IMG/VR virus record: IMGVR_UViG_3300013001_000001
Span: 1-43,280 of that record
DNA: 43,280 nt
Reading direction: 5' to 3' (one strand)
From: a virus
Below are positions 1,912 through 43,280 of this stretch, in pieces (positions within the stretch are counted from its first letter, which is position 1; each line of letters opens with the position of its first letter). The notes under the pieces were generated by a model. The model worked only from the letters and a program-made list of their open reading frames with translations. It searched no databases and was not told where the DNA came from. Made by a program: the position numbers and the translations under genes.

Positions 1912-2137
1912 GTCGTATCTGGGGTCGGAGATTACCGCCCGGTTACGGCACGTGGCAAGCATGGCGTGAAGAACCTGACGCATTGTTGCGCAGCGCCATG
2001 AGGGCGATTTTCACGTTCGGACAACCGATCTGGTGTCAATCCTGCGACGAACGCCCCGATGCCGGCGGCGGCCCGTCCGGCTATTTCCAGGGCAACTGGT
2101 AGAATTGGCACCAGGCCAGCACAGCCAGGTACCCGCC

Positions 2138-3244
2138 ATGATCTACCGCCGCAAGGACTCCAAATTCTGGTGGATGACGTACACCGATGCCTACGGCATC
2201 CCCGTCCGCCGCTCCACCCAAACCGAAGACCGCAAGGACGCCCGCGTGCTTTACCAGCAGGTGGTCGCCGAGGTCTGGCGGGAGAAGCACATGGGCGTCC
2301 AGGCGCCCCGCACCCTGGCCCAGGTTCTGCGGCCATACCTCTATCACGCCCGCCGGCATCAACGGAGCTTCGAGAGCACCCTCTACCGAGTGCAGACCCT
2401 GAAGCACTACTTTCCCGACGACACGGTGGTCAACCGGCTGACCGGCCAGGACATCCGCAGCTACAGCGCCAGGCGCCTGGAAGCGGGCGCGGCGCCGGCG
2501 ACGATCAACCGGGAGCTGTCTGCCCTTTCCGCGGCCATCAACTACTGCAACACCGAGCTGGACTGGCAGGTGCCGAACGTCATCACCGGCCGGCGCCTGC
2601 GCGAGCCGGACGGGCGCGTGCGCTGGCTGACCCGCGCCCAGGTCGAGGGCCTGTGCCGCAAGGCGGCCGAGCGCAAGACCGGCCAGCTCCTCGAGGACTT
2701 CATTCGGCTGGCGGTCCACACCGGCGGGCGCAAGAGCGAGCTGCTCGGCCTGGAGGTTAGCAGGATCGACCTGCAGAACAATCTGATCATCCTGGAGCAC
2801 ACCGACAACAAGAGCGACAAGCGCCGCTCGATCCCGCTGAACCACTCCGCCCAGGCCGCCATCCTTCGCCGGCTGGCCTACCGCGCCGCGAACTGCCCGG
2901 ACAGCCCCTGGTTGTTCTGCAAGCGCGACGGCGACCCGGTGAAGAGCATCCGAACGGCCTTCGAGAAGGCAGTCGACGAAGCCGGCATCCAGGACTTCAC
3001 CATCCACGACCTGCGCCACACCTGCGCGGCCTGGTTGGTGACCGCCGGCGTGCCGCTGATCGAGGTCCGCGACCTGCTCGGCCACGCCAGCATCGAGCAG
3101 ACGGAGATCTACGCGCACCTGGCCCCGTTCCGGGTTCGCCAGGCGGTCAGCCAGCTCGACCTCCTGCTGCCAGACAACGGTGAGCTGTGGCCCCCGAGGG
3201 TGATCAGCCTGGACGAAGCGCGGGGCAAAAAGCCTCACGCCTGA
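2138..3244 (+). CDS. int: Tyrosine recombinase / phage integrase, 368 aa
   Basis: C-terminal catalytic signature HDLRHTCAAWLVTAGVPLIEVRDLLGHASIEQTEIYAH. N-terminus MIYRRKDSKFWWMTY is typical of phage integrases. ATG 2138 chosen over the Arg-rich in-frame prefix starting at 2033. Confidence 0.92.
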   Translation: MIYRRKDSKFWWMTYTDAYGIPVRRSTQTEDRKDARVLYQQVVAEVWREKHMGVQAPRTLAQVLRPYLYHARRHQRSFESTLYRVQTLKHYFPDDTVVNRLTGQDIRSYSARRLEAGAAPATINRELSALSAAINYCNTELDWQVPNVITGRRLREPDGRVRWLTRAQVEGLCRKAAERKTGQLLEDFIRLAVHTGGRKSELLGLEVSRIDLQNNLIILEHTDNKSDKRRSIPLNHSAQAAILRRLAYRAANCPDSPWLFCKRDGDPVKSIRTAFEKAVDEAGIQDFTIHDLRHTCAAWLVTAGVPLIEVRDLLGHASIEQTEIYAHLAPFRVRQAVSQLDLLLPDNGELWPPRVISLDEARGKKPHA

Positions 3245-3252
3245 TTCACGTC

Positions 3253-3270
3253 CCGGATCATGTGCGTTTT
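3253..3270. repeat. Right arm of the 18-bp inverted repeat (CCGGATCATGTGCGTTTT)
   Basis: Exact reverse complement of 1226..1243. Confidence 0.9.
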
Positions 3271-3347
3271 GGCGTCCAGCGCCGACAGGCTGCGAGCGCC
3301 TCTGGCGCAGGGTATAGCGCCAGGCGCCGGCGGGAGGCGGAATTTAC

Positions 3348-3378
3348 ACGCACATGACACCCCATCATGTGCGTTTTT
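3348..3378 (+). terminator. Hairpin terminator downstream of int, built from the same motif
   Basis: ACGCACATGA (3348..3357), 7-nt loop, TCATGTGCGT (3365..3374), then TTTT. Confidence 0.65.
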
Positions 3379-3478
3379 GCGGATCCGCGCCGCCGCAGGG
3401 TTTCCGCCAGGTTGACCAGGGCGAACCGGGCGCTCAGCCACCCCTCCAGAATTTCACGGCAACAGCCGACCGATCGGA

Positions 3479-3589
3479 CCCGACGTGTGGATCGCCGGCG
3501 CACGATCATCCGCTAGCCCCGGAACATTGTTCCGGGCATGATGATCCCACCAGCCAGCCACGACGGCGAGGCGCCCCCGGAGCGACACG
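3479..3589 (+). promoter_or_regulatory. Copy A of the duplicated promoter/operator/5' leader
   Basis: Shares with 42546..42656 a 16-nt box CCCGACGTGTGGATCG and about 70 nt (roughly 90% identical) running to the ATG. Palindrome CCGGAACATTGTTCCGG (3519..3535) fills the 17-nt spacer between a weak -35 (TAGCCC) and CATGAT (3537..3542). GGAG RBS sits 7 nt before the ATG. Confidence 0.7.
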
Positions 3590-3838
3590 ATGAAAAAGCA
3601 AGCCACCTTCCCCACCCGCCAAGCCGCAAACGCGGCAGGCTTCCTGGCCCTGAGCCAGATCAAGCTCGAAGGCGAGCCGGTCACCTTCCGCAACGGCCAC
3701 CTGGTCACCAGCGACAGCCTGGTCCTGGCCACGGTCGCCACCGAGACCTTCAAGCTCGGCACCAACCTGGGCGCCCTTTTCCGCAAGGCGGACATCGACG
3801 CCGCCCAAGCCAGCCTCGACGAAGTCGCCGCCCTTTAA
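3590..3838 (+). CDS. Hypothetical 82-aa protein; candidate anti-defence (anti-CRISPR-like) gene by context
   Basis: Good RBS. First gene behind the operator-containing promoter and upstream of the Aca1-like gene. No family recognised. Confidence 0.6.
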   Translation: MKKQATFPTRQAANAAGFLALSQIKLEGEPVTFRNGHLVTSDSLVLATVATETFKLGTNLGALFRKADIDAAQASLDEVAAL

Positions 3839-3895
3839 GGGCGGCACCCTCCGCCGCCCCCGCCGGGGCGGCCACCCCATTCAGGAGCCAGAGCC

Positions 3896-4150
3896 ATGAC
3901 CGAATTCACCTTTAAGCACCAGCACGGCGACGAACAGACCGACCCGGAATACACCCTCCTGCAGGACGGCGTTCCTACCCGGATCAGCATCCAGGACAGC
4001 ACCAGCTACGGCGGCGGCTTCTCGGTCAACGTCGACCACCTCGACGACATCGACAATCCGCACATCGTCCACCTGCACCCTCACCTGAAGACGCTGGACC
4101 AGGCCAAAGAGATCGCCCTCGCCCACGCCCGCGCAGGCCTGCAGCCATGA
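3896..4150 (+). CDS. Hypothetical acidic, His-rich 84-aa protein; candidate anti-defence (anti-CRISPR-like) gene by context
   Basis: RBS CAGGAG. Stop overlaps the start of the Aca1-like gene (ATGA). No family recognised. Confidence 0.6.
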   Translation: MTEFTFKHQHGDEQTDPEYTLLQDGVPTRISIQDSTSYGGGFSVNVDHLDDIDNPHIVHLHPHLKTLDQAKEIALAHARAGLQP

Positions 4151-4689
4151 TGCCGAACGCGGAAACGCACTACCTGCCCGACCCGGAGTACCTCAAGCGG
4201 CTGATCGCGGACGCGGGCACCACCCCGCGTTTCGCCGCCGAGCGGATCGGGCTGACCGGGCGCGCCATGCGCTACTACCTCACGCCCCAGGTCGAGGGCG
4301 CCGATTACCGGGTGGCGCCCTACCCGGTCCAGTACACCCTCGAAACCCTGGCCTGCACCGAGCTATCCGCGCGCCATCTCGGCACGTACAAAAACCCCGA
4401 CGTGGTCCTGGAGCAGGTCACCAGCCTGGCCTACCTGCTGGAACAGCTGCACCTCCAGTACGCGACGCCCAGTGACGGCACCCCGGAGGGAATGATCAAG
4501 CGCGGACGCCGGATGCACGCGCTGGCCATGAGCGGGCGCCAGCTGATCAGCTACCTGCTCTGGCTGGGCTTCATGACCGGCGACGTTGGCCGCAACCTCG
4601 ATCAGCGCTTCTACCTGGCCCAAGGCCGAAAGGCAGACGATCCCGTCCACGCCGACGTCGCCGCCATCAAGGCGAAGTACAACCCCTGA
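4147..4689 (+). CDS. aca1: Aca1-like HTH regulator with an additional C-terminal domain of about 105 aa (180 aa total)
   Basis: LPDPEYLKRLIADAGTTPRFAAERIGLTGRAMRYYLTPQVEGADYRVAPYPVQYTLETLA aligns by eye, with about half the positions identical, to Aca1 of Pseudomonas phage JBD30 as I recall it. Confidence 0.6.
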   Translation: MMPNAETHYLPDPEYLKRLIADAGTTPRFAAERIGLTGRAMRYYLTPQVEGADYRVAPYPVQYTLETLACTELSARHLGTYKNPDVVLEQVTSLAYLLEQLHLQYATPSDGTPEGMIKRGRRMHALAMSGRQLISYLLWLGFMTGDVGRNLDQRFYLAQGRKADDPVHADVAAIKAKYNP

Positions 4690-5926: not shown

Positions 5927-6106
5927 TGATGAGGGAGGGAATTGGTGGTGGGTGCCCGGACGGGCGAGAGGATGCGTCTAGCAAAATTGACCAGCAGTCG
6001 GCAGAACGATGGGGGCCAGCCCTAGCCGTCACGAAAAATACAGGTAGGCTTGACCCGCGCACCCACCTGTCCGGGTGCGCCCTTCAACCTTCAGGAGAGA
6101 CCATCG

Positions 6107-6568
6107 ATGTCCCAGCTTTCCGAGCACCAGCCAGGCAGCGAGCGCCATCTGGATGAGTACCGAGCGGAGCATCGTCCCGATTGGCAAGACATGGTCGACG
6201 GCGACATCCCACTCAACCCGCTGCAGCGAATCTGGTTCGACGCCACCCCGCTCGATCGGCGCGACCCCCAAGAGGTCCAGGACTGGTGGAAGCGGCCCTA
6301 CATCCAGACCTTCACCCTGGCGCAGCACCTGAACATGCTCCGCGAGAAGAACGCGAACGACGCCTACCTGGACGACCGGGTACGCGACTGCAAGGCGGCC
6401 TGGCACATGGCCTGGCCAGAGGGCACCCGGTATGAGGTGCGCGCCCTGGATGGCGCCGATGCCACCGGCTCGACCTGCTGGGGCATCACCGCGACCCTCG
6501 CGGACGCCATCCGCCTGGTGCGCGCCGGCCCGCGCGGGCTGAACCCCAAGGAACGCCCCTACTTCTGA
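6107..6568 (+). CDS. Hypothetical 153-aa protein; opposite-strand moron inside the late operon
   Basis: RBS CAGGAGAG 6 nt before ATG 6107. High-GC3 ORF. Its 3' end overlaps the convergent DUF1353 gene by 10 nt. Confidence 0.7.
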   Translation: MSQLSEHQPGSERHLDEYRAEHRPDWQDMVDGDIPLNPLQRIWFDATPLDRRDPQEVQDWWKRPYIQTFTLAQHLNMLREKNANDAYLDDRVRDCKAAWHMAWPEGTRYEVRALDGADATGSTCWGITATLADAIRLVRAGPRGLNPKERPYF

Positions 6569-9890: not shown

Positions 9891-11567
9891 TTAGACGAAG
9901 CCGACGAAGCCCTTCTCGCTGGTGGCGAGCTCGTCAGTGATCCGGTTGTAGGCGACCTGCAGGGGCGGGAGCACGGCAGGCTTGGCGTACTGCTTCACCT
10001 CGCCGCCGACCTTGTCGAAGTAGAAAAAGCGCCCAGCGCGGATGCTGGTGAGGACGTAGTCCCCCTCGTACCTTTTGACGATCAGCTGCCCAATGTTCAG
10101 CGACAGTAGCCGCAGGCTGTATTGCAGCCCAACACTGTCCTTGAAACTGGAGTAGTTCGCGTTTGAAGCGGGCAGATACAGATGGCTCGCGTAGGACCCC
10201 CGTGAGCTGCCCTCACCGCCCGATGCCGAGTGCAGCAGCACGCCATCCATGAAGGCCTTCTGCTCCCACTGAACAGCGTTCGAGGTGGAGAGATGGCCAA
10301 CCATAGTGCCAGTCCAGTCATAGTCGATGGTATCGGTGAACTGCGCGTGTCCGGTGTATTTGATCGAGGTAGAAGCACCAGGAGCACTGACGCGCATCTC
10401 AGAGGTGACAGACAGAGACCCGGAGCCACCCCCGGACCACCTAGCACCGCCCTGCTTGGTCACCTCGAACGCCCAGTTCGGCGCGTATTGCACCCACTCC
10501 GTATCTTCCGAGTGGTCCCCACCCGAAGGCCCTGACATGGTGAAGATTTCGGCGAAGTCCACGTCGAAGCGGATGGGGACCGGCTTATCCTCCGCGTCAT
10601 AGAAGTAGCCGCATGCCGCGTTCCGAACCTGGTAGGTCAGCCGATGGCTACCGCCCACAGTGAACAGGACGGACATGCCTGGCGCATTGCCCACGCCGGT
10701 CAGGGTGCCATAGGAGGTGTACCCCGCCCGCATGGTCTCCGTTTCCACGGTGGTTTCGCCACCCGTAGAGAAGGCTTGTACCCAGCCATGGTCGTAGTTA
10801 TCCGAGTAAGTCTGGGTGCTGGACCATTCCAAGTTGATCTCGGTCAGGTGCGCCTTATGGGTGCGCTTGCCGGTTTCGTCATCCACCTCGGTGGAGATCA
10901 CCAGCTCGAACCACCGCGCCCCGGGGCGCAGCTTTGTAGGCCCGCCGTCCGGGTCATAGATATACCCCAGGTACTGGTCTTTAGCCCCGCTCGACAGCAG
11001 CACCCGCGAGCCATCCCGAGTGGTGTCGGAGATATCCAGCTGACCCACATAGCCCCATTCCGCCTTCACGGTTTCAGTGAGCGGAATCTCCTCATGCCTC
11101 CATTGGTCACGCACGTCCTCCTCCGGCGAGCGCCGCAGGACGGGCTGCGGCGACAGGCGAAGCCTACGGGAGGATTCGCCCCCGAAGATGCCCACCATGA
11201 ACACCTGCTCGCCGTCGCTATAAAGCCACTTCGGCAGAGTGGGAATGGACTGTTCCCATTCCGAGCGCAGATGCACATGCATCTGGGCATAGTCGAACAG
11301 CACATCCGGCCGCCACTCGATGCCACGCTTCTTGTCTTCAGCCTGCTGCTCAGGCGTGCGCTCGACGGGCTTCGCCCTGGGATCGCGGAACCACTGGCAG
11401 CCCTTCGCCGTGAGCACGTCACCGGCGGGATAGGGGACAAACTGCCCATTGGGCAGCCAGATGGAAAGCTCATATTCGCCAGGCCGAGCCTGCACCTTCC
11501 CATGCCACGGCACGCCGAACAGAAACTCATCCCCGGGCGTCCAGTCATGCAGAGCGCTATCGAACAT
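9891..11567 (-). CDS. Tail-tip structural protein, 558 aa
   Basis: Long high-GC3 ORF in the tail module. ATGA-type junction with the upstream gene. Confidence 0.7.
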   Translation of the reverse strand: MFDSALHDWTPGDEFLFGVPWHGKVQARPGEYELSIWLPNGQFVPYPAGDVLTAKGCQWFRDPRAKPVERTPEQQAEDKKRGIEWRPDVLFDYAQMHVHLRSEWEQSIPTLPKWLYSDGEQVFMVGIFGGESSRRLRLSPQPVLRRSPEEDVRDQWRHEEIPLTETVKAEWGYVGQLDISDTTRDGSRVLLSSGAKDQYLGYIYDPDGGPTKLRPGARWFELVISTEVDDETGKRTHKAHLTEINLEWSSTQTYSDNYDHGWVQAFSTGGETTVETETMRAGYTSYGTLTGVGNAPGMSVLFTVGGSHRLTYQVRNAACGYFYDAEDKPVPIRFDVDFAEIFTMSGPSGGDHSEDTEWVQYAPNWAFEVTKQGGARWSGGGSGSLSVTSEMRVSAPGASTSIKYTGHAQFTDTIDYDWTGTMVGHLSTSNAVQWEQKAFMDGVLLHSASGGEGSSRGSYASHLYLPASNANYSSFKDSVGLQYSLRLLSLNIGQLIVKRYEGDYVLTSIRAGRFFYFDKVGGEVKQYAKPAVLPPLQVAYNRITDELATSEKGFVGFV

Positions 11568-27110: not shown

Positions 27111-28484
27111 TTAAGCCTCGACTGCGGCAGGCAGACGCGGCTCAGCGGCCACCTGCTCGAATAGCGCGCTATCGGATGCGCGAACGGCTTTCTCGCCGGT
27201 GAAGTCCTGCCAGCGCCGGATGATCACGTCGACGAAGCGCGGATCCAGCTCCATCAGGCGAGCCTGGCGGCCCAGCATTTCGCAGGAGATGAGGGTCGAG
27301 CCGGATCCGCCGAACAGGTCCAGCACCAGGTCGCCCTCGCGGGTGGAGTTGCGCAGCAGGCGCGACACCAGTTCCACCGGCTTCATCGTGGGGTGGTCCG
27401 CGGAGCGCTTCGGCTTCTCGACGCGGATGATGGTGCTCTGCAGGGGCGCGGCCTTGAGGTTGGTACCGGACAGGACGATGGCCTCGCCGCCGATGCGTGC
27501 TGTTATGGTGCCATCATCGTTCTGCGTGAAGACCGAGCCGCCCAGCTCCAGGACGGTGGTCTGCTTGCGCCCGCCGTACCAGCGGTGCCGCGCGCCAGGC
27601 TTCCAGCCGTACAGGATCGGCTCATGCTGCCACTGGTAGTCCGAGCGCCCCAGCACCAGGCTGTTCTTGGCCCACACCAGGCACCCGCTGATCTTGAAGC
27701 CGGCCGCCTTGAAGGCAGCGCGGAAGTTCAGGCCCTCGGTGTCGGCATGGGCGACGTACACCGGCGCGCCAGGCTTGAGCACGTCCATGGCGGCCAGGAA
27801 AGCGTCCTCGAGGAACGTCCTGAAGGCTTCATCGCGCATGGAGTCGTTCTTGATCTTGCCGGCGAGCTTGGACTCATAGTTCACGTTGTACGGCGGGTCG
27901 GTCCAGCAGGCATCAGCCAGGTGGCCCTCCAGCAGCGCGCGCACCTGCTCGGGCTGGGTGGAGTCGCCGCAGTACACCCGATGCACGCCCAGCAGCCAGA
28001 GCTCGCCCGGTTGCGCCACCGGATCCTCAACCTCCGGTACCGCGTCCGGGTCGGTCAGGCCGCCCTTGGATTCTTCGGTTGCGAACAGCGCGGACATCTC
28101 GTCTTCGGAGAAGCCCACCAGGTCCAGGTCGAAGCCCAGCTCGGCGAGCGAATCCAGTTCGAGGCGCAGCATCTCCTCATCCCACCCGGCATTCAGGGCG
28201 AGCTTGTTGTCGGCGATGACGTAGGCGCGCTTCTGCGCTTCGGTCAGCCCGACCAGGGTGATGGTGGGGCCTTCCTCCAGGCCGAGCAGATCCGCGGCCA
28301 GCACCCGGCCATGGCCTGCGATGATGCCGCCCTCCTCGTCGATCAGCACCGGGTTCGTCCAGCCGAACTCCTTGATGCTTGCTGCGATCTGCTGCACCTG
28401 CGCGGGGCTGTGGGTGCGGCTATTGCGGGCGTAGGGGATCAGCGCCGCCAGCCTGCGATATTCGATTGAGAGCTTAGAAGCCAC
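27111..28484 (-). CDS. ParB-like nuclease domain fused to a DNA methyltransferase (N6-A/N4-C type), 457 aa, GTG start
   Basis: N-terminal ParB/Srx-like LIPYARNSRTHS...GHGRVLAA. MTase motif IV TDPPYNVNY. C-terminal AdoMet motif LVLDLFGGSGST. Confidence 0.85.
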   Translation of the reverse strand: MASKLSIEYRRLAALIPYARNSRTHSPAQVQQIAASIKEFGWTNPVLIDEEGGIIAGHGRVLAADLLGLEEGPTITLVGLTEAQKRAYVIADNKLALNAGWDEEMLRLELDSLAELGFDLDLVGFSEDEMSALFATEESKGGLTDPDAVPEVEDPVAQPGELWLLGVHRVYCGDSTQPEQVRALLEGHLADACWTDPPYNVNYESKLAGKIKNDSMRDEAFRTFLEDAFLAAMDVLKPGAPVYVAHADTEGLNFRAAFKAAGFKISGCLVWAKNSLVLGRSDYQWQHEPILYGWKPGARHRWYGGRKQTTVLELGGSVFTQNDDGTITARIGGEAIVLSGTNLKAAPLQSTIIRVEKPKRSADHPTMKPVELVSRLLRNSTREGDLVLDLFGGSGSTLISCEMLGRQARLMELDPRFVDVIIRRWQDFTGEKAVRASDSALFEQVAAEPRLPAAVEA

Positions 28485-39958: not shown

Positions 39959-40212
39959 TGCTGAGCCCCGACACCCGCGAGCGCCTGATCGACCAGCTGA
40001 ACCGGAGCTACCTGGCGATGCCGATGTGGGCCAGGACCGCCCTCAAGCACGCCCTGGGCGCGCCCACGAACAATCCCACCACCGGCCGGCCCTTCGAGAC
40101 CTTCCGCGAAGTGCTCGAGCAATCGCACGACGACACGCTCGAGCAGATCCGCCAGGACTTCGAGGACAACGGCGACCTGCTCCCGGAGGCCGCCGATGTT
40201 CCACGTTCCTGA
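39958..40212 (+). CDS. Hypothetical 84-aa protein
   Basis: TGATG-coupled ORF. Confidence 0.55.
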   Translation: MLSPDTRERLIDQLNRSYLAMPMWARTALKHALGAPTNNPTTGRPFETFREVLEQSHDDTLEQIRQDFEDNGDLLPEAADVPRS

Positions 40213-40552
40213 GCGCCACCGCGTGACCACCGGCGTGCTGCGATCGACGCCGGACTACGGCAACAACGGTTGCTTCAGGCTGACGCTGCGGGTCGGGGGC
40301 AAGCCCAAGCTGGTCCAGGTCATCGCCAGCGACGACGACGGCTGGGAGCACGTCAGCGTGGTTTGGTCGGGCGGCATGCCCAGCTGGGAGATGATGTGCG
40401 CGGTCAAGGAGCTGTTTTGGGATCCAGAGGACTGCGTGGTCCAGTTCCACCCGCCGCGCAGCGAGCACGTCAACGTCCACCCCACCTGCCTGCACCTCTG
40501 GCGCCCGACCACGGCGCCCATCGAATGCCCGCCGAAGTGGATGATCGGCTGA
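40196..40552 (+). CDS. Conserved phage protein, 118 aa
   Basis: WEHVSVVWSGGMPSWEMMCAVKELFWDPEDCVVQFHPP...HLW is a motif seen in many phage early regions. Function unknown. Confidence 0.6.
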   Translation: MFHVPERHRVTTGVLRSTPDYGNNGCFRLTLRVGGKPKLVQVIASDDDGWEHVSVVWSGGMPSWEMMCAVKELFWDPEDCVVQFHPPRSEHVNVHPTCLHLWRPTTAPIECPPKWMIG

Positions 40553-40553
40553 C

Positions 40554-41405
40554 GTGGACCCCTTCCGCGTCACCGGCAACACCGCGGTCAGTTTCAGCGG
40601 CGGTCGCACCAGCGGGATGATGGCCCGCCTGGTCCAGCAGGCGAACCAGGCCGACGCCCCCATCAGGTACCTGTTCGCGAACACCGGCAAGGAGATGGAG
40701 CAGACGCTGCAGTTCGTCGATCGCTGCGCCCGCGAGTGGGGCCTGGACGTGACCTGGCTGGAGTACACCCGCGATGAGCCAGGCTTCAGGGTGGTCGACC
40801 TGGCCAGCGCCAGCCGCAACGGCGAACCCTTCGAGACGTTGATCCAGGCCCGCAAGTACCTGCCGAACCCGGTCACGCGCTTCTGCACGGTCGAGCTGAA
40901 GATCCGCACCATGCACCGCTACCTCAAGTCCCTCGGCTGGGCGGACAACGACGGCGAGTGGGACAGCATCGTCGGGATCCGCGCCGATGAGCACCGCCGG
41001 GTGGCCAAGATCCGCGCCAGGGGCACCAGCACCGAAACCCCACGCGAGCACATGCGCCTGCCGCTGGCCGATGCGGGCCTGACCGTGGCCGACGTCGGCG
41101 CCTTCTGGCGCGCCCAGCCCTTCGACCTGGAGCTGCCCAGCCACAACGGCAAGACCCTGCTGGGCAACTGCGACCTCTGCTTTTTGAAGGGGCGCCAGCA
41201 GGTGTACAGCATCATCGAGACAGACCGCCGGCGAGCGGACTGGTGGGCCGCCCAGGAGCAGGCGATCACCAAAGGGGGCGACGCCGCCCTGTTCCGCTTC
41301 GACCGGCCCAGCTACACGCAGATGCGCGAATACGCCGGGCGCCAGATTCAGCTGTTCGAGGACGACGACCTGGACGACAGCATCGACTGCTTCTGCGGCG
41401 ACTGA
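40554..41405 (+). CDS. PAPS-reductase/PP-loop ATP-pyrophosphatase family protein, 283 aa (GTG start)
   Basis: PP-loop SFSGGRTSGMM. CTVELKIRTM. C-terminal Cys clusters CDLCFLKG and DCFCGD. Confidence 0.75.
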   Translation: MDPFRVTGNTAVSFSGGRTSGMMARLVQQANQADAPIRYLFANTGKEMEQTLQFVDRCAREWGLDVTWLEYTRDEPGFRVVDLASASRNGEPFETLIQARKYLPNPVTRFCTVELKIRTMHRYLKSLGWADNDGEWDSIVGIRADEHRRVAKIRARGTSTETPREHMRLPLADAGLTVADVGAFWRAQPFDLELPSHNGKTLLGNCDLCFLKGRQQVYSIIETDRRRADWWAAQEQAITKGGDAALFRFDRPSYTQMREYAGRQIQLFEDDDLDDSIDCFCGD

Positions 41406-41454
41406 GTAACCCCAGCCACGGACGGCACCCCTACCCCTCATGGCATCAAAAATA

Positions 41455-41516
41455 TATACTGCGTAAGCATTGCGTATGCACGCAGGATTGATAATGTGTG
41501 CCCCGCGTACACACTA
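41455..41516 (+). promoter_or_regulatory. parA promoter/operator candidate with clustered TGCGTA-type repeats
   Basis: CTGCGTA, TGCGTA, inverted CACGCAG and CGCGTA within 50 bp. TTGATA (41488..41493)-N17-ACACTA. AT-rich tract upstream. Confidence 0.45.
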
Positions 41517-41538
41517 AAGGCGCCAGGAGGTGCCAGCC

Positions 41539-42213
41539 ATGATCACCCTCGTAGGGAACCCCAAGGGCGGAGTCGGCAAGTCGACTATCGCCGTGAACAT
41601 CGCCTCGGCCCGCGCCATGATCCCCGGCCGCCGGGTCCTCCTGGTCGACGGCGACGACCCCGAGCAGCGCAGCTCGGCCGACGCGATCCTCTTCCGCATG
41701 CAGGCCGAGGGCTTCCCCGGCATTGCCAGCGCCAACTGGTTCAACGGCGATGAGCTGCGCACCCAGGTCCAGCACCAGCGCGCCCTCTTCGACGACATCA
41801 TCATCGATGCCGGCGGCGACGACGGCGGCGCCCTCCGCGCCGGCATGATGATCTGCGACAAGATGGTCGTGCCCTACGCCCCGAAGGCCTTCGAGACCCG
41901 CGCCCTGCGCAAGCTGCAGAGCCTGATCGACCTTTGCAACGAAGCCCGCCGCGAGATGAAGCGCCAGCCCATCGAGGTCCTGGCCTTCCTCAACCGCGCC
42001 AAGCCGGGCGTGAACAACACCATCAACCTGCAGGGGCAGAGCGTCATCGAGCACTTCCCCCTGCTCAAGCTGATCGAGCCCAAGCTGGTCCACCGGGAGG
42101 CCTTCTCGGACGCCGCCGCGATGGGCATCAGCGTGTTCGAGCACAAGCCCCGCGACGCGAAAGCGTGCGACGAATTGAAGGCGCTCCTCGCCGCCATCTA
42201 CGGAGACCAATGA
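41539..42213 (+). CDS. parA: ParA/Soj-family partition ATPase, 224 aa
   Basis: Deviant Walker A GNPKGGVGKST and LLVDGDD. RBS AGGAGG 8 nt before ATG 41539. Confidence 0.85.
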   Translation: MITLVGNPKGGVGKSTIAVNIASARAMIPGRRVLLVDGDDPEQRSSADAILFRMQAEGFPGIASANWFNGDELRTQVQHQRALFDDIIIDAGGDDGGALRAGMMICDKMVVPYAPKAFETRALRKLQSLIDLCNEARREMKRQPIEVLAFLNRAKPGVNNTINLQGQSVIEHFPLLKLIEPKLVHREAFSDAAAMGISVFEHKPRDAKACDELKALLAAIYGDQ

Positions 42214-42214
42214 C

Positions 42215-42472
42215 ATGCCCAAGCCCAGCCTGCTCGCCCCCACCGCACCCGACGCCGAATCCGCATTCATCGCCGGCGGCAGATCCAGCCCGAAGCCCGC
42301 CGCCCAGGTCGAGGCCGCGCCCAAGGGCAAGCCCAAGATGAAGCCGGTCCCGCTGAAGCTCGAGGAAGACCTGATCGAGCGCATCGACGCGGCAGCCGCC
42401 AAGCGCATGCTCAGCCGCACCGCCTTTCTGCGCCAGGCTGCCCTGGCGCAGCTTGAAGACATGGGCATGTAA
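42215..42472 (+). CDS. Ribbon-helix-helix (ParG/CopG-like) partner protein, 85 aa
   Basis: Disordered basic N-terminus, then KPVPLKLEEDLIERIDAAAAKRMLSRTAFLRQAALAQL, an RHH fold pattern. Confidence 0.7.
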   Translation: MPKPSLLAPTAPDAESAFIAGGRSSPKPAAQVEAAPKGKPKMKPVPLKLEEDLIERIDAAAAKRMLSRTAFLRQAALAQLEDMGM

Positions 42473-42530: not shown

Positions 42531-42545
42531 GGCTCACCGCTGGCA

Positions 42546-42656
42546 CCCGACGTGTGGATCGGGCAAGCGCGCTTATTCCGTGGATACGGAACATTGTTCC
42601 GGGCATGATGCTCCCACAGCCAGCCACAACGGCGAGGCGAAACCCGGAGCGACACC
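42546..42656 (+). promoter_or_regulatory. Copy B of the duplicated promoter/operator/5' leader
   Basis: Same 16-nt box CCCGACGTGTGGATCG. -35 TGGATA (42581..42586). 17-nt spacer containing CGGAACATTGTTCCG. -10 CATGAT (42604..42609). Leader about 90% identical to copy A up to the ATG. Confidence 0.7.
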
Positions 42657-42971
42657 ATGAGCCAGACCATCGAAATGACCTTCCCGGTTGAAGGCCTGCA
42701 GGACCAGAAAGCCACCTTCAGCATCCAGCCAGACGGCGCGGTCCTGGTCACCTTCCCCGGCCTCTTCATGAGCCTGCACGCGCCGGGCAGCGCCCTGCAA
42801 TTCACCACCCGCCGCACCAAAGGCGCCAGCGCCGAGTCGATGACGGTCGCCTACGCCCAGGACGAGAAGCTCACCAGCGGATGGGTGATCACCCTGAGCA
42901 AGGCAGCCGGCCAAGCCCTGCAGGACCGCCTCTGGAACCACCTGGCCACCCTGAACGAAGCCGCCGAATAG
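42657..42971 (+). CDS. Hypothetical 104-aa protein driven by the duplicated promoter; candidate anti-defence gene by context
   Basis: GGAG RBS within the conserved leader. A single-gene unit between two terminators. No family recognised. Confidence 0.6.
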   Translation: MSQTIEMTFPVEGLQDQKATFSIQPDGAVLVTFPGLFMSLHAPGSALQFTTRRTKGASAESMTVAYAQDEKLTSGWVITLSKAAGQALQDRLWNHLATLNEAAE

Positions 42972-42980
42972 GCAGCAAAG

Positions 42981-43015
42981 AGGCGCACCAGGTAGACACC
43001 GGGTGCGCCTTTTTT
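42981..43015. terminator. Terminator between the convergent 104-aa (+) and 64-aa (-) genes
   Basis: AGGCGCACC (42981..42989), 12-nt loop, GGTGCGCCT (43002..43010), then T6 on the plus strand. Confidence 0.8.
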
Positions 43016-43025
43016 ACATACCGCG

Positions 43026-43220
43026 TCAGTCCTCCCGCAGCACCAGGCGGAGCGTGCGCAGCGCCTCGGCCTGGCCGTCCTGCCAGTCGATCGCCGCGAC
43101 CGAGGCCTGCGGGTGCGGGCATTCATCGCCCAGGCCGATCAGCTCCGCGACGAAGCCGGCGCGCCACTCGGGCGTGTTCCAGCGGCCGATATCGAAGCAC
43201 AGCCCGGAATCAATCAGCAT
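43026..43220 (-). CDS. Hypothetical 64-aa protein, translationally coupled to the HTH gene across the circular junction
   Basis: Its ATG (43218..43220, equal to nt 61..63) overlaps the stop of 53..358 in ATGCTGATTGA. High GC3. Confidence 0.6.
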   Translation of the reverse strand: MLIDSGLCFDIGRWNTPEWRAGFVAELIGLGDECPHPQASVAAIDWQDGQAEALRTLRLVLRED

Positions 43221-43280
43221 GGGCCTGCGCCGGTACCGCGGCCAGATCCAGCTCGGCGCCGTGGTCGCGCATGGCCTGAA
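43158..43280. repeat. Right copy of the 123-bp terminal direct repeat
   Basis: Identical to nt 1..123. Confidence 0.95.

Follow-up and report, generated by a model that had tools for sequence, protein, structure and literature searches.

An extended Aca1-like regulator and its small partner gene in a candidate Aca1-controlled anti-defence regulon of a temperate phage

We analysed a 43,280-nucleotide stretch of viral DNA (IMG/VR record IMGVR_UViG_3300013001_000001, positions 1 to 43,280; hereafter the window) in which a short operon lies between the integrase gene and the lysis genes of a phage. It comprises three open reading frames (ORFs): two small orphans, ORF1 (82 amino acids) and ORF2 (84 amino acids, acidic), and then ORF3 (180 amino acids), which encodes a regulator related to Aca1, the anti-CRISPR-associated repressor that closes anti-CRISPR (acr) operons such as that of Pseudomonas phage JBD30. 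These genes lie at the positions and have the sizes given in a preliminary description of this DNA (Table 1). Their third-position G+C content (0.87–0.91) is that of real genes of a 66% G+C genome, the small ORFs are co-directional and directly upstream of the aca-like gene on a phage genome, and the ATGA coupling of that gene to ORF2 is present in the sequence as described. The preliminary description had proposed a candidate acr–aca1 operon closed by an Aca1-like repressor, and all components of this proposal were borne out at the level of the sequence.

Table 1. Coordinates of the features of the locus and its neighbourhood in the window
Feature	Position	Strand	Details
Integrase gene	2033–3244
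Upstream box	3478–3494	+	ACCCGACGTGTGGATCG; conserved box of the P1 cassette
Putative promoter P1	3514–3542	+	−35 TAGCCC (3514–3519), 17-nucleotide spacer, −10 CATGAT (3537–3542)
Putative Aca1 operator	3518–3536		CCCGGAACATTGTTCCGGG, perfect 19-bp palindrome in the P1 spacer; core CGGAACATTGTTCCG at 3520–3534
Aca1 RNA motif of the 5′ untranslated region	3553–3572	+	GCCAGCCACGACGGCGAGGC; hairpin GCC.GCC.....GGC..GGC
ORF1	3590–3838	+	82 amino acids, near-neutral orphan; GGAG 7 nucleotides upstream; third-position G+C 0.88
Two G+C-rich hairpins between ORF1 and ORF2	3827–3845 and 3853–3872	+	No U-tract; first loop holds the ORF1 stop
ORF2	3896–4150	+	84 amino acids, acidic, His-rich; isoelectric point 5.2; 13 D+E versus 5 K+R
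ORF3	4147–4689	+	180 amino acids; last gene of the P1 operon; ATGA overlap with ORF2
ORF3 N-terminal domain (residues 1–70)	4147–4356	+	Aca1-family helix-turn-helix repressor domain (PDB and PHROG homology)
ORF3 C-terminal domain (residues 71–180)	4357–4689	+	Orphan helical extension; isoelectric point 9.0
172-amino-acid orphan ORF	6050–6568	+	Strand opposite to flanking lysis and tail-fibre genes; no Pfam match
ParB-like N-terminal domain–DNA methyltransferase fusion	27111–28484	−	457 amino acids; phrog_498 (E = 8 × 10−168), phrog_620 (E = 2.5 × 10−54)
DUF7694-like ORF	40196–40552		Accessory block upstream of P2
PAPS reductase-like gene	40554–41405		phrog_424 (E = 9 × 10−52)
ParA	41530–42213		Accessory block upstream of P2
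Ribbon-helix-helix (RHH)/CopG protein	42215–42472		Accessory block upstream of P2
P2 cassette, whole	42545–42656	+	Second copy of the P1 control region
P2 box	42545–42561	+	Perfect copy of ACCCGACGTGTGGATCG
P2 hexamers (putative)	42581–42586 and 42604–42609	+	−35 TGGATA; −10 CATGAT
P2 operator	42587–42601	+	CGGAACATTGTTCCG, perfect motif match
P2 RNA motif	42619–42638	+	GCCAGCCACAACGGCGAGGC, 20/20 identical to the JBD30 leader
ORF104	42657–42971	+	104-amino-acid acidic orphan behind P2
Intrinsic terminator, end of the P2 operon	42982–43015	+	GGCGCACC...GGTGCGCC then TTTTTT, read from the sequence

The N-terminal part of ORF3 bears out the Aca1-like assignment, which had been made by eye against a correctly quoted JBD30 Aca1 sequence. 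Residues 3–70 match the JBD30 Aca1 structures 7vjn, 7c0g and 7fa3 (phmmer against the PDB, E = 9 × 10−14 to 2 × 10−13, or about 10−13), and the protein matches phrog_3865 (E = 1.7 × 10−17), its sole match in family scans of Pfam, NCBIfam, PHROGs and PADLOC. A tblastn search of GenBank phages with ORF3 returned 128 records, of which 127 are Pseudomonas phages, at approximately 50% identity, and every one of these alignments stops at residue 68–78. The base-contacting residues of JBD30 Aca1 in the Aca1–IR2 crystal structure, R44, R47, Y48 and R59 (PMC8633003), are kept in ORF3 as R39, R42, Y43 and R55. Two further DNA-contact residues are kept as Y44 and R28 (Y49 and R33 of JBD30 Aca1), and four positions are substituted from JBD30 Aca1 to ORF3 (S42 to T37, V45 to A40, Q32 to P27 and R22 to K17). 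The domain has a ratio of non-synonymous to synonymous substitution rates (dN/dS) of 0.12 between the window and the sister phage L001, the comparison used for all such ratios given here. Membership of ORF3 in the Aca1 family is thus supported by homology of its helix-turn-helix (HTH), its predicted contact residues, and the operator and RNA motif described below. With 180 amino acids, ORF3 departs from the small, single-domain form (fewer than 100 amino acids) that is a trait of Aca1. We considered the possibility that ORF3 is a phage immunity repressor and ruled it out: the gene comes last in an operon of small genes preceded by an Aca1 operator and RNA motif, and there is no divergent repressor arrangement.

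Upstream of ORF1 is a compact control cassette, P1, that combines a conserved box, a palindromic operator within a promoter-like spacer and an RNA hairpin. The preliminary description had placed a palindrome in the 17-nucleotide spacer of the promoter; this holds to within 1 nucleotide, and the palindrome is longer than described (a perfect 19-mer) and the hexamers are weak. Within it, GGAACATTGTTCC at 3521–3533 forms an inverted repeat of the GGCACA-N-TGTGCC type in the gene's own promoter. The operators of JBD30 Aca1 are IR2, GGCACAATGTGCC, and IR1, GGCACACTGTGCC (PMC8633003). Compared with the JBD30 form GGCACA-N-TGTGCC, the window operator (GGAACA-T-TGTTCC) has one base changed per half-site and shares the 6+1+6 geometry. 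The 15-nucleotide core CGGAACATTGTTCCG has exactly two zero-mismatch copies in the 43 kb, and in relatives the operator arms are conserved, with variation at the central base alone (T or A). The box ACCCGACGTGTGGATCG has its centre approximately 63 nucleotides upstream of the inferred P1 transcription start, is conserved in L001, L024 and L025 (see below), and occurs in exactly two perfect copies in the window (3478 and 42545), compared with 0.24 expected with up to three mismatches. Five IMG/VR matches to the box had no operator nearby and were set aside as chance.

The RNA element of the cassette, GCCAGCCACGACGGCGAGGC, begins 16 nucleotides past the palindrome and is identical at 19 of 20 positions to the acrIF1 leader of JBD30; folding predictions give one and the same leader hairpin for the window, for JBD30 and for L001. 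The Aca1 RNA motif has been described as two 3-bp stems with at most two unpaired bases between them, placed directly after the transcription start and ending approximately 20 nucleotides before the start codon, and JBD30 Aca1 binds it with a dissociation constant of approximately 61 nM (PMC13551039, Feussner et al. 2026). The predicted fold of the motifs in the window fits that description, and the pattern has two perfect matches in the window compared with 0.09 expected. An Rfam search found no relevant family.

A blastn comparison of L001 with the window revealed that approximately 115 nucleotides of this control region are present twice. The second copy, P2, lies approximately 4.2 kb upstream of P1, a placement that follows from the circularity of the genome (indicated by an approximately 120-nucleotide end repeat), and it is followed by ORF104 and a terminator. 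Box, operator and RNA motif occur together in exactly these two cassettes in 43 kb. The P1 layout is repeated in P2 (TGGATA-17-CATGAT) and also in a divergent clade of relatives (TAGATA-17-TATTAT around GGCACAATGTGCC). The P2 operon is variable: L001 has an extra 137-amino-acid orphan downstream of ORF104 that the window lacks, and the whole cassette is missing from L024, within a contig of 16 kb. In L024 (7960–8003), the part of the P1 leader that comes after the RNA motif (GAAACCCGGAGC...) has the P2 rather than the P1 form (compare window 42619–42656), which suggests that recombination in the shared leader exchanges cargo.

The preliminary description had called the C-terminal extension of ORF3 unusual; the extension is real, conserved and an orphan, and it measures 110 residues rather than approximately 105. 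An exhaustive phmmer search with this tail against 1.84 billion representative proteins yielded no credible homologue: apart from ORF3 itself, there was one weak match, to a repeat protein. That match (P0007, 554 amino acids, E = 1.8 × 10−4) was discarded as uninformative, its own EF-hand and DUF1542 matches being sub-threshold. The tail has no Pfam match, and neither its single sequence nor its family profile matches the PDB. Independent assemblies keep it whole, with 83% amino acid identity in L001 and L002 (dN/dS = 0.52) and 97% in L024. Between the window and L001, it has accumulated 14 synonymous and 25 non-synonymous changes, and there are stops in both other frames. We could therefore rule out an assembly or stop-loss artefact as the origin of the 180-amino-acid ORF. 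More distant homologues of the tail (approximately 19–22% identity) form the C-terminal parts of two proteins, of 173 and 182 amino acids, from the metagenomic contigs L026 and L027; they share with the window the residues E89, L94-A95-Y96 and D110-G111. The AlphaFold2 model of ORF3 is poor (mean predicted local distance difference test score, pLDDT, 43.7), as the alignment is too shallow; in this model the tail is all-helical, with long helices at 84–105 and 113–143. Judged by its sequence, the tail is a conserved orphan domain that appears to form a family separate from the extra domains of other Aca1 proteins.

Extended Aca1 proteins of this kind, referred to here as long Aca1, were found in six lineages (the window, L001/L002, L024, L025, L026 and L027), and ORF2 is ATGA-coupled to long Aca1 in 6/6 of the lineages found. 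The 1.7-kb contig L025 carries ORF1, an ORF2 of 95% identity and, next to it, a long Aca1 with only 45% identity to ORF3; the contig end cuts this protein at residue 100, 30 residues past the Aca1 domain, and those residues align with the first helix of the tail. A search with the L025 Aca1 led to L026 and L027 (58–59% G+C), which form the divergent clade. They carry the JBD30-type operator GGCACAATGTGCC and a variant RNA motif, and encode an ORF2 homologue (84 amino acids, 48–49% identity) that overlaps by ATGA the gene for the 173- or 182-amino-acid Aca1, with 36–37% overall identity to ORF3. L024 combines a 97%-identical tail with a 75%-identical ORF2. No ORF2 homologue was found at 12 short-Aca1 loci with the same operator, nor at 64 further IMG/VR Aca1 loci. 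Because ORF2 is always coupled to long Aca1 and never to short Aca1, we regard ORF2 and long Aca1 as the likely core module, and ORF1 and the P2 operon as apparently exchangeable accessories. As alleles recombine freely (97% tail with 75% ORF2 in L024, 95% ORF2 with 45% Aca1 in L025), the pairing is one of families rather than of alleles.

The other products of the two operons are orphans. The small ORFs had been described as belonging to no recognised family, which is borne out by the lack of matches in Pfam, PHROG, NCBIfam, PADLOC and the PDB. ORF1 also has no match by tblastn against phages; its sole homologue is a 98%-identical protein in sister phages (dN/dS = 0.22), and it is missing from L024, where P1 leads straight into ORF2. 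ORF2 has no family match in the same databases or in GenBank phages, and none to a toxin family (RelE, HigB, MqsR, HicA and others) in Pfam, NCBIfam, PADLOC or the PDB. It is fast-evolving (dN/dS = 1.15), with changes clustered at residues ~45–66. ORF104 has 62% amino acid identity to its L001 copy (dN/dS = 1.09) and no match in the PDB, PHROG, Pfam or PADLOC, and the 137-amino-acid protein of L001 has none in Pfam, NCBIfam, PHROGs, PADLOC, PDB sequences or GenBank phages. A word-indexed search of 5.8 billion proteins with ORF1, ORF2 and ORF3 recovered copies from sister phages only. The presence of ORF1, ORF104 and the 137-amino-acid gene varies between sister phages that are approximately 91–93% identical.

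The AlphaFold2 model of ORF2 has low confidence (pLDDT 58.8), again owing to a shallow alignment, and shows several strands and a C-terminal helix; Foldseek with this model found no match at E ≤ 0.001 in the PDB or BFVD. A profile of six ORF2 sequences weakly matches Src-family SH2 domains over residues 15–61 (Fyn, E = 0.005), hhalign of the ORF2 family against the Fyn SH2 domain gives 69% probability over residues 14–60, and a Fyn SH2 entry is also present far down the Foldseek list. The phosphotyrosine-binding Arg of SH2 domains is an invariant Gln (Q33) in the ORF2 family. We treat the SH2-likeness as a lead, not a finding.

ORF1 and ORF2 had been described as tightly packed; they are in fact separated by 57 nucleotides containing two strong hairpins (minimum free energy −38.2 kcal/mol, z = −3.0). 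In L001 the stems are kept and a loop is altered, and L025 has the first hairpin only. The stems (GCCGCC/GGCGGC) resemble a bulge-less Aca1 RNA motif, and attenuation and RNA stability are possible roles for the hairpins, as is that of an internal Aca1 RNA site.

Loci elsewhere that use the same operator variant place the window in context. Scanning IMG/VR for GGAACANTGTTCC followed by GCCAGCCAC identified 13 contigs with this variant, which is also present in L003. Aca1 is encoded downstream in 12 of the 13 (67–105 amino acids) and in L003, and most of the 13 have the palindrome between the hexamers of a good promoter, where it fills the spacer (TTGCAA-17-TATAGT is one example). AcrIF11 (PDB 6kyf, E = 1 × 10−87) and an AcrIF2 homologue (E = 3 × 10−8) are among the cargo of these loci, as are, by eye, AcrIE4- and AcrIF7-like proteins. 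At 60 of the 64 further IMG/VR Aca1 loci the protein ends no more than 16 residues past the Aca1 domain, and the exceptions have unrelated tails. In L032 (424–1343), an AcrIF2-like gene precedes a 188-amino-acid Aca1 with a 120-amino-acid C-terminal tail that has no PDB match, and in L003 (1–1000) the 191-amino-acid Aca1 P0003 has an N-terminal extension of approximately 120 residues and lies behind a canonical TTGACA-17-TATACT leader with operator and RNA motif, and a 110-amino-acid orphan. From these sequences, Aca1 domains appear to gain extra domains occasionally.

Several characterized systems can be compared with the locus. It shares with JBD30 acrIF1–aca1 (7C0G, 7VJM/7VJN, 7FA3) a homologous HTH, a 6+1+6 operator in the promoter spacer, a near-identical 5′ hairpin and a regulator that comes last in an operon of small proteins. 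It differs in the half-site (GGAAC here, GGCAC in JBD30), in the length of the regulator (180 compared with 79 amino acids), in the weak promoter hexamers and orphan cargo, and in having a lineage-specific box in place of the second inverted repeat upstream. The JBD30 locus lies in a Mu-like head module, whereas that of the window lies between the integrase and lysis genes of a siphovirus-type phage. This location had been thought unusual, a view that does not survive comparison with MPK9 (OP868670), where acrIF7–aca1 sits inside the lysis cassette. In both phages, a short rightward unit, inserted into a non-Mu genome of approximately 44 kb, runs opposite to the lysis genes, and the aca1 stop abuts a convergent lysis gene (endolysin in MPK9, spanin in the window); the cargo of MPK9, by contrast, is a known Acr (AcrIF7), and its Aca1 is short (72 amino acids).

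One Aca regulating several operons has been described and predicted to be common (PMC13551039). Such regulons, which include those of Aca11 and Aca13 (PMC12282945), resemble the window in having one aca gene and several operator and RNA-motif cassettes that precede separate operons of unannotated small genes. The window differs in that its operons are approximately 4.2 kb apart, across the integrase gene and an accessory block, rather than adjacent, and in that, unlike in the compared regulons, the second operon is missing from one sister phage. ORF3 also recalls the Acr–Aca proteins AcrIIA1, AcrIIA13–15, AcrIF24 and AcrIE10 in that these combine an HTH autorepressor and a second domain in one polypeptide encoded in an anti-CRISPR locus, an arrangement that ORF3 appears to share. 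It differs from them in that its HTH belongs to the Aca1 family and its tail resembles none of their second domains. No report of an Aca1 fusion turned up in the literature that we searched.

Taken together, these comparisons indicate that the locus is probably an Aca1-controlled anti-defence regulon, and most probably an anti-CRISPR one, organized around the ORF2/long-Aca1 core. We place it in the class of Aca1-regulated operons because of its Aca1 homology, operator and RNA motif, which are shared with loci that carry AcrIF11 or an AcrIF2 homologue. Orphan, variable and fast-evolving cargo would fit anti-defence genes: ORF2 is the prime inhibitor candidate, and ORF1 and ORF104 are candidate accessory anti-defence proteins. 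By analogy with JBD30, P1 and P2 would fire on phage entry and the small cargo proteins would be made at once, ORF1 and ORF2 from P1 and ORF104 from P2. ORF3 would be translated last in the P1 operon through its ATGA coupling to ORF2, and its dimer would bind the palindrome in the 17-nucleotide spacer of P1 and P2 and probably also the conserved 5′ hairpin of both mRNAs. Such binding to DNA and RNA would shut the operons down once enough inhibitor has been made. We infer repression, RNA binding and the anti-defence activity of ORF1, ORF2, ORF104 and the tail from these resemblances.

Several observations weigh against this reading. The P1 hexamers are weak (TAGCCC/CATGAT) and a consensus scan calls no sigma-70 promoter, so that the hexamers are putative. 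Neither the cargo proteins nor the tail resemble a known Acr or anti-defence family by sequence, and searches of the PDB (including many Acr structures), Pfam, PHROGs, NCBIfam and GenBank phages did not identify ORF1, ORF2 or ORF104 as homologues of validated Acrs; the structure models (pLDDT 43.7 and 58.8) are too poor for fold comparison. The values of dN/dS near 1 could reflect relaxed constraint instead of an arms race. Fewer than half of the genes under predicted Aca1 or Aca2 control have an assigned function (PMC13551039), and association with Aca1 is therefore no proof of anti-CRISPR activity. Finally, we found no prophage copy in GTDB representative genomes when searching with the ORF3 protein and the lineage-specific operator/−10 string.

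The role of the tail is a separate matter from the class of the operon. One possibility, which we consider tenable if somewhat unlikely, is that ORF3 is a bifunctional Acr–Aca fusion in which the Aca1 domain represses and the 110-residue tail inhibits host defence, in the manner of AcrIIA1, AcrIIA13–15, AcrIF24 and AcrIE10. Bifunctional fusions of an HTH and an inhibitor are documented (PMC9410906), with further examples in other reports (PMC10901769, PMC9638941, PMC13530269), and ORF3 does combine an HTH with a second, unrelated domain; other Aca1 genes have unrelated extra domains of their own (L032 and P0003, each of 120 amino acids). The tail also evolves faster than the HTH (dN/dS of 0.52 compared with 0.12) and retains approximately 20% identity between clades, as would be expected of an arms-race surface. 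Set against this, the tail has no similarity to any solved Acr and, unlike the inhibitor domains of some known fusions, it never stands alone among the 1.84 billion representatives. A fusion would also leave the strict pairing with ORF2 unexplained, which is the feature that the next alternative addresses: the tail could be a partner-binding or sensor domain for ORF2, so that repression of P1 and P2 follows the amount of free inhibitor, as in the conditional cooperativity of toxin–antitoxin systems. The pairing persists in all six lineages across two operator types, 58–66% G+C and 36–49% protein identity, is confined to long Aca1 among the 12 same-operator and 64 further loci described above, and survives the allele swap in L025, where a 95%-identical ORF2 again has a long Aca1 (45% identical) as its partner. 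An HTH joined to a toxin-binding domain is the make-up of two antitoxins, HigA2 and MqsA. These two are also the nearest structural relatives of Aca1. The structural similarity is reported in PMC8633003. Against a sensor, there is no allele-specific co-variation, since near-identical ORF2 proteins have different tails in the window and L025 and the converse holds in L024, and the linkage could be mere co-inheritance of a compact module. We therefore regard a sensor for ORF2 as unlikely. The fuller version, in which long Aca1 is an inhibitor-sensing repressor that keeps both operons off when ORF2 is in excess and lets them come on while a host target soaks up ORF2, is less probable still.

Less likely than a sensor is a role of the tail in oligomerisation, which would give a higher-order repressor with tighter or cooperative repression, or looping of the DNA between P1 and P2 over approximately 4.2 kb. 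Long helices are predicted at 84–105 and 113–143, with low confidence, the genome has two identical operators, and the extra C-terminal domain of Aca2 serves in dimerisation (PMC9410906). Canonical Aca1, by contrast, dimerises without any tail (PMC8633003), the short contigs L026 and L027 have a single operator, and the linkage to ORF2 would again go unexplained; looping in particular is unlikely, given that L024 has a 97%-identical tail and no P2 cassette within its 16 kb. The same gene order can also be read, with very low probability, as a toxin–antitoxin or addiction module rather than an anti-defence locus, with ORF2 as a toxin encoded first (as in higBA and mqsRA) and ORF3 as its antitoxin, autoregulated through the palindrome. 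The locus resembles HigBA and MqsRA in its small first gene, its translationally coupled second gene with an HTH and an extra domain, and the palindromic operator in its own promoter; the likeness of the Aca1 fold to HigA2 and MqsA (PMC8633003) is in keeping with this, and a phage with partition genes (ParA and the RHH protein) may need stabilisation. It differs from them in having no toxin signature, an acidic, fast-evolving first gene and a leader and operator of the acr-operon type. ORF2 (isoelectric point 5.2) matches none of the toxin families of Pfam, NCBIfam or PADLOC, its dN/dS of 1.15 is unlike that of a conserved enzyme toxin, and its family is extremely rare. The promoter and ORF2 can be separated by an unrelated gene (ORF1), a second copy of the cassette precedes a separate single-gene operon at P2, and the leader has the Aca1 RNA motif common to proven acr operons, all of which argue against an addiction module.

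No anti-CRISPR regulator has been studied better than Aca1, which is also the main means of discovering new anti-CRISPRs by their neighbourhood. Read as an anti-defence regulon, the locus offers up to four orphan candidate inhibitors under an Aca1 DNA and RNA cassette (ORF1, ORF2, ORF104 and the 137-amino-acid gene of a sister phage), and a clear natural example of one Aca1 for two separated operons, with cargo swapped between phages that are approximately 91–93% identical. Its regulator belongs to a sub-family of Aca1 not reported before, marked by a conserved extra domain and always accompanied by one particular small protein. If the tail were an inhibitor, ORF3 would be the first Aca1-type Acr–Aca fusion; if it senses ORF2, anti-CRISPR output would be feedback-controlled by the inhibitor itself. 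An inhibitor-sensing repressor would bring to anti-CRISPR loci a new regulatory logic borrowed from the conditional cooperativity of toxin–antitoxin systems, and with it a new family of ORF2 inhibitors, possibly with a minimal SH2-like fold. If nothing holds up experimentally, this would be one more unannotated Aca1 operon among the hundreds already predicted.

The window is a complete circular assembly of approximately 43.16 kb and 66% G+C, as judged from the repetition of its first ~120 nucleotides (1–120) as its last ~120 (43160–43280) and from sister contigs that are permuted relative to it; the sister genomes are approximately 91–93% identical to it in DNA. The phage is a temperate, siphovirus-type one. 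Its structural genes encode tail fibres, a tape measure protein, an HK97-type capsid, a portal and a terminase, and further genes encode RecT, an exonuclease, a ParB–methyltransferase fusion, a PAPS reductase, and ParA with an RHH protein. The lysis genes beside the locus encode a GH19-type endolysin and a spanin, the latter convergent with ORF3. The host is probably a pseudomonad, given the 66% G+C, the approximately 61% identity of the endolysin to those of Pseudomonas phages and the Aca1 matches, which are almost exclusively to Pseudomonas phages; the terminase has relatives in enterobacterial phages and is uninformative on the host. A megablast search of the locus against GenBank phages found no match. 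Searches of viral contigs with full-length ORF3 and with an ORF2 profile, and a scan of metagenome contigs for the box and operator pattern, recovered nothing, the window included; because its own sequence was not recovered there, the window has no entry in these collections.

Between the integrase stop (3244) and the P1 cassette lie a direct repeat, ATCATGTGCGTTTT(T)GCG, at 3257–3274 and 3364–3381, and an inverted pair, ACGCACATGA/TCATGTGCGT, at about 3347–3374. The repeats in 3257–3381 may be integrase arm sites or the phage attachment site (attP). One sister contig, L002 from ENA, starts at a position that aligns with approximately 3342 of the window.

Directly upstream of P2 is an accessory block (40196–42472) that contains a DUF7694-like ORF, the PAPS reductase-like gene, ParA and the RHH protein. 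PAPS reductases are among the candidate anti-defence genes near Aca operons (PMC13551039). ParA and the RHH protein together suggest a partition system; the same phage also encodes an integrase. Elsewhere in the genome, the 457-amino-acid ParB–methyltransferase fusion may be an anti-restriction methylase. The 172-amino-acid orphan at 6050–6568 is a candidate moron; it is kept in sister phages, where it is called as 153 amino acids. In L024, a RelB/YafQ toxin–antitoxin pair lies at 10804–11500 (corresponding to approximately 6570 of the window), between the 153-amino-acid ORF and the tail-fibre chaperone. This pair is missing from the window and L001, and the site is a second variable cargo spot of the lineage.

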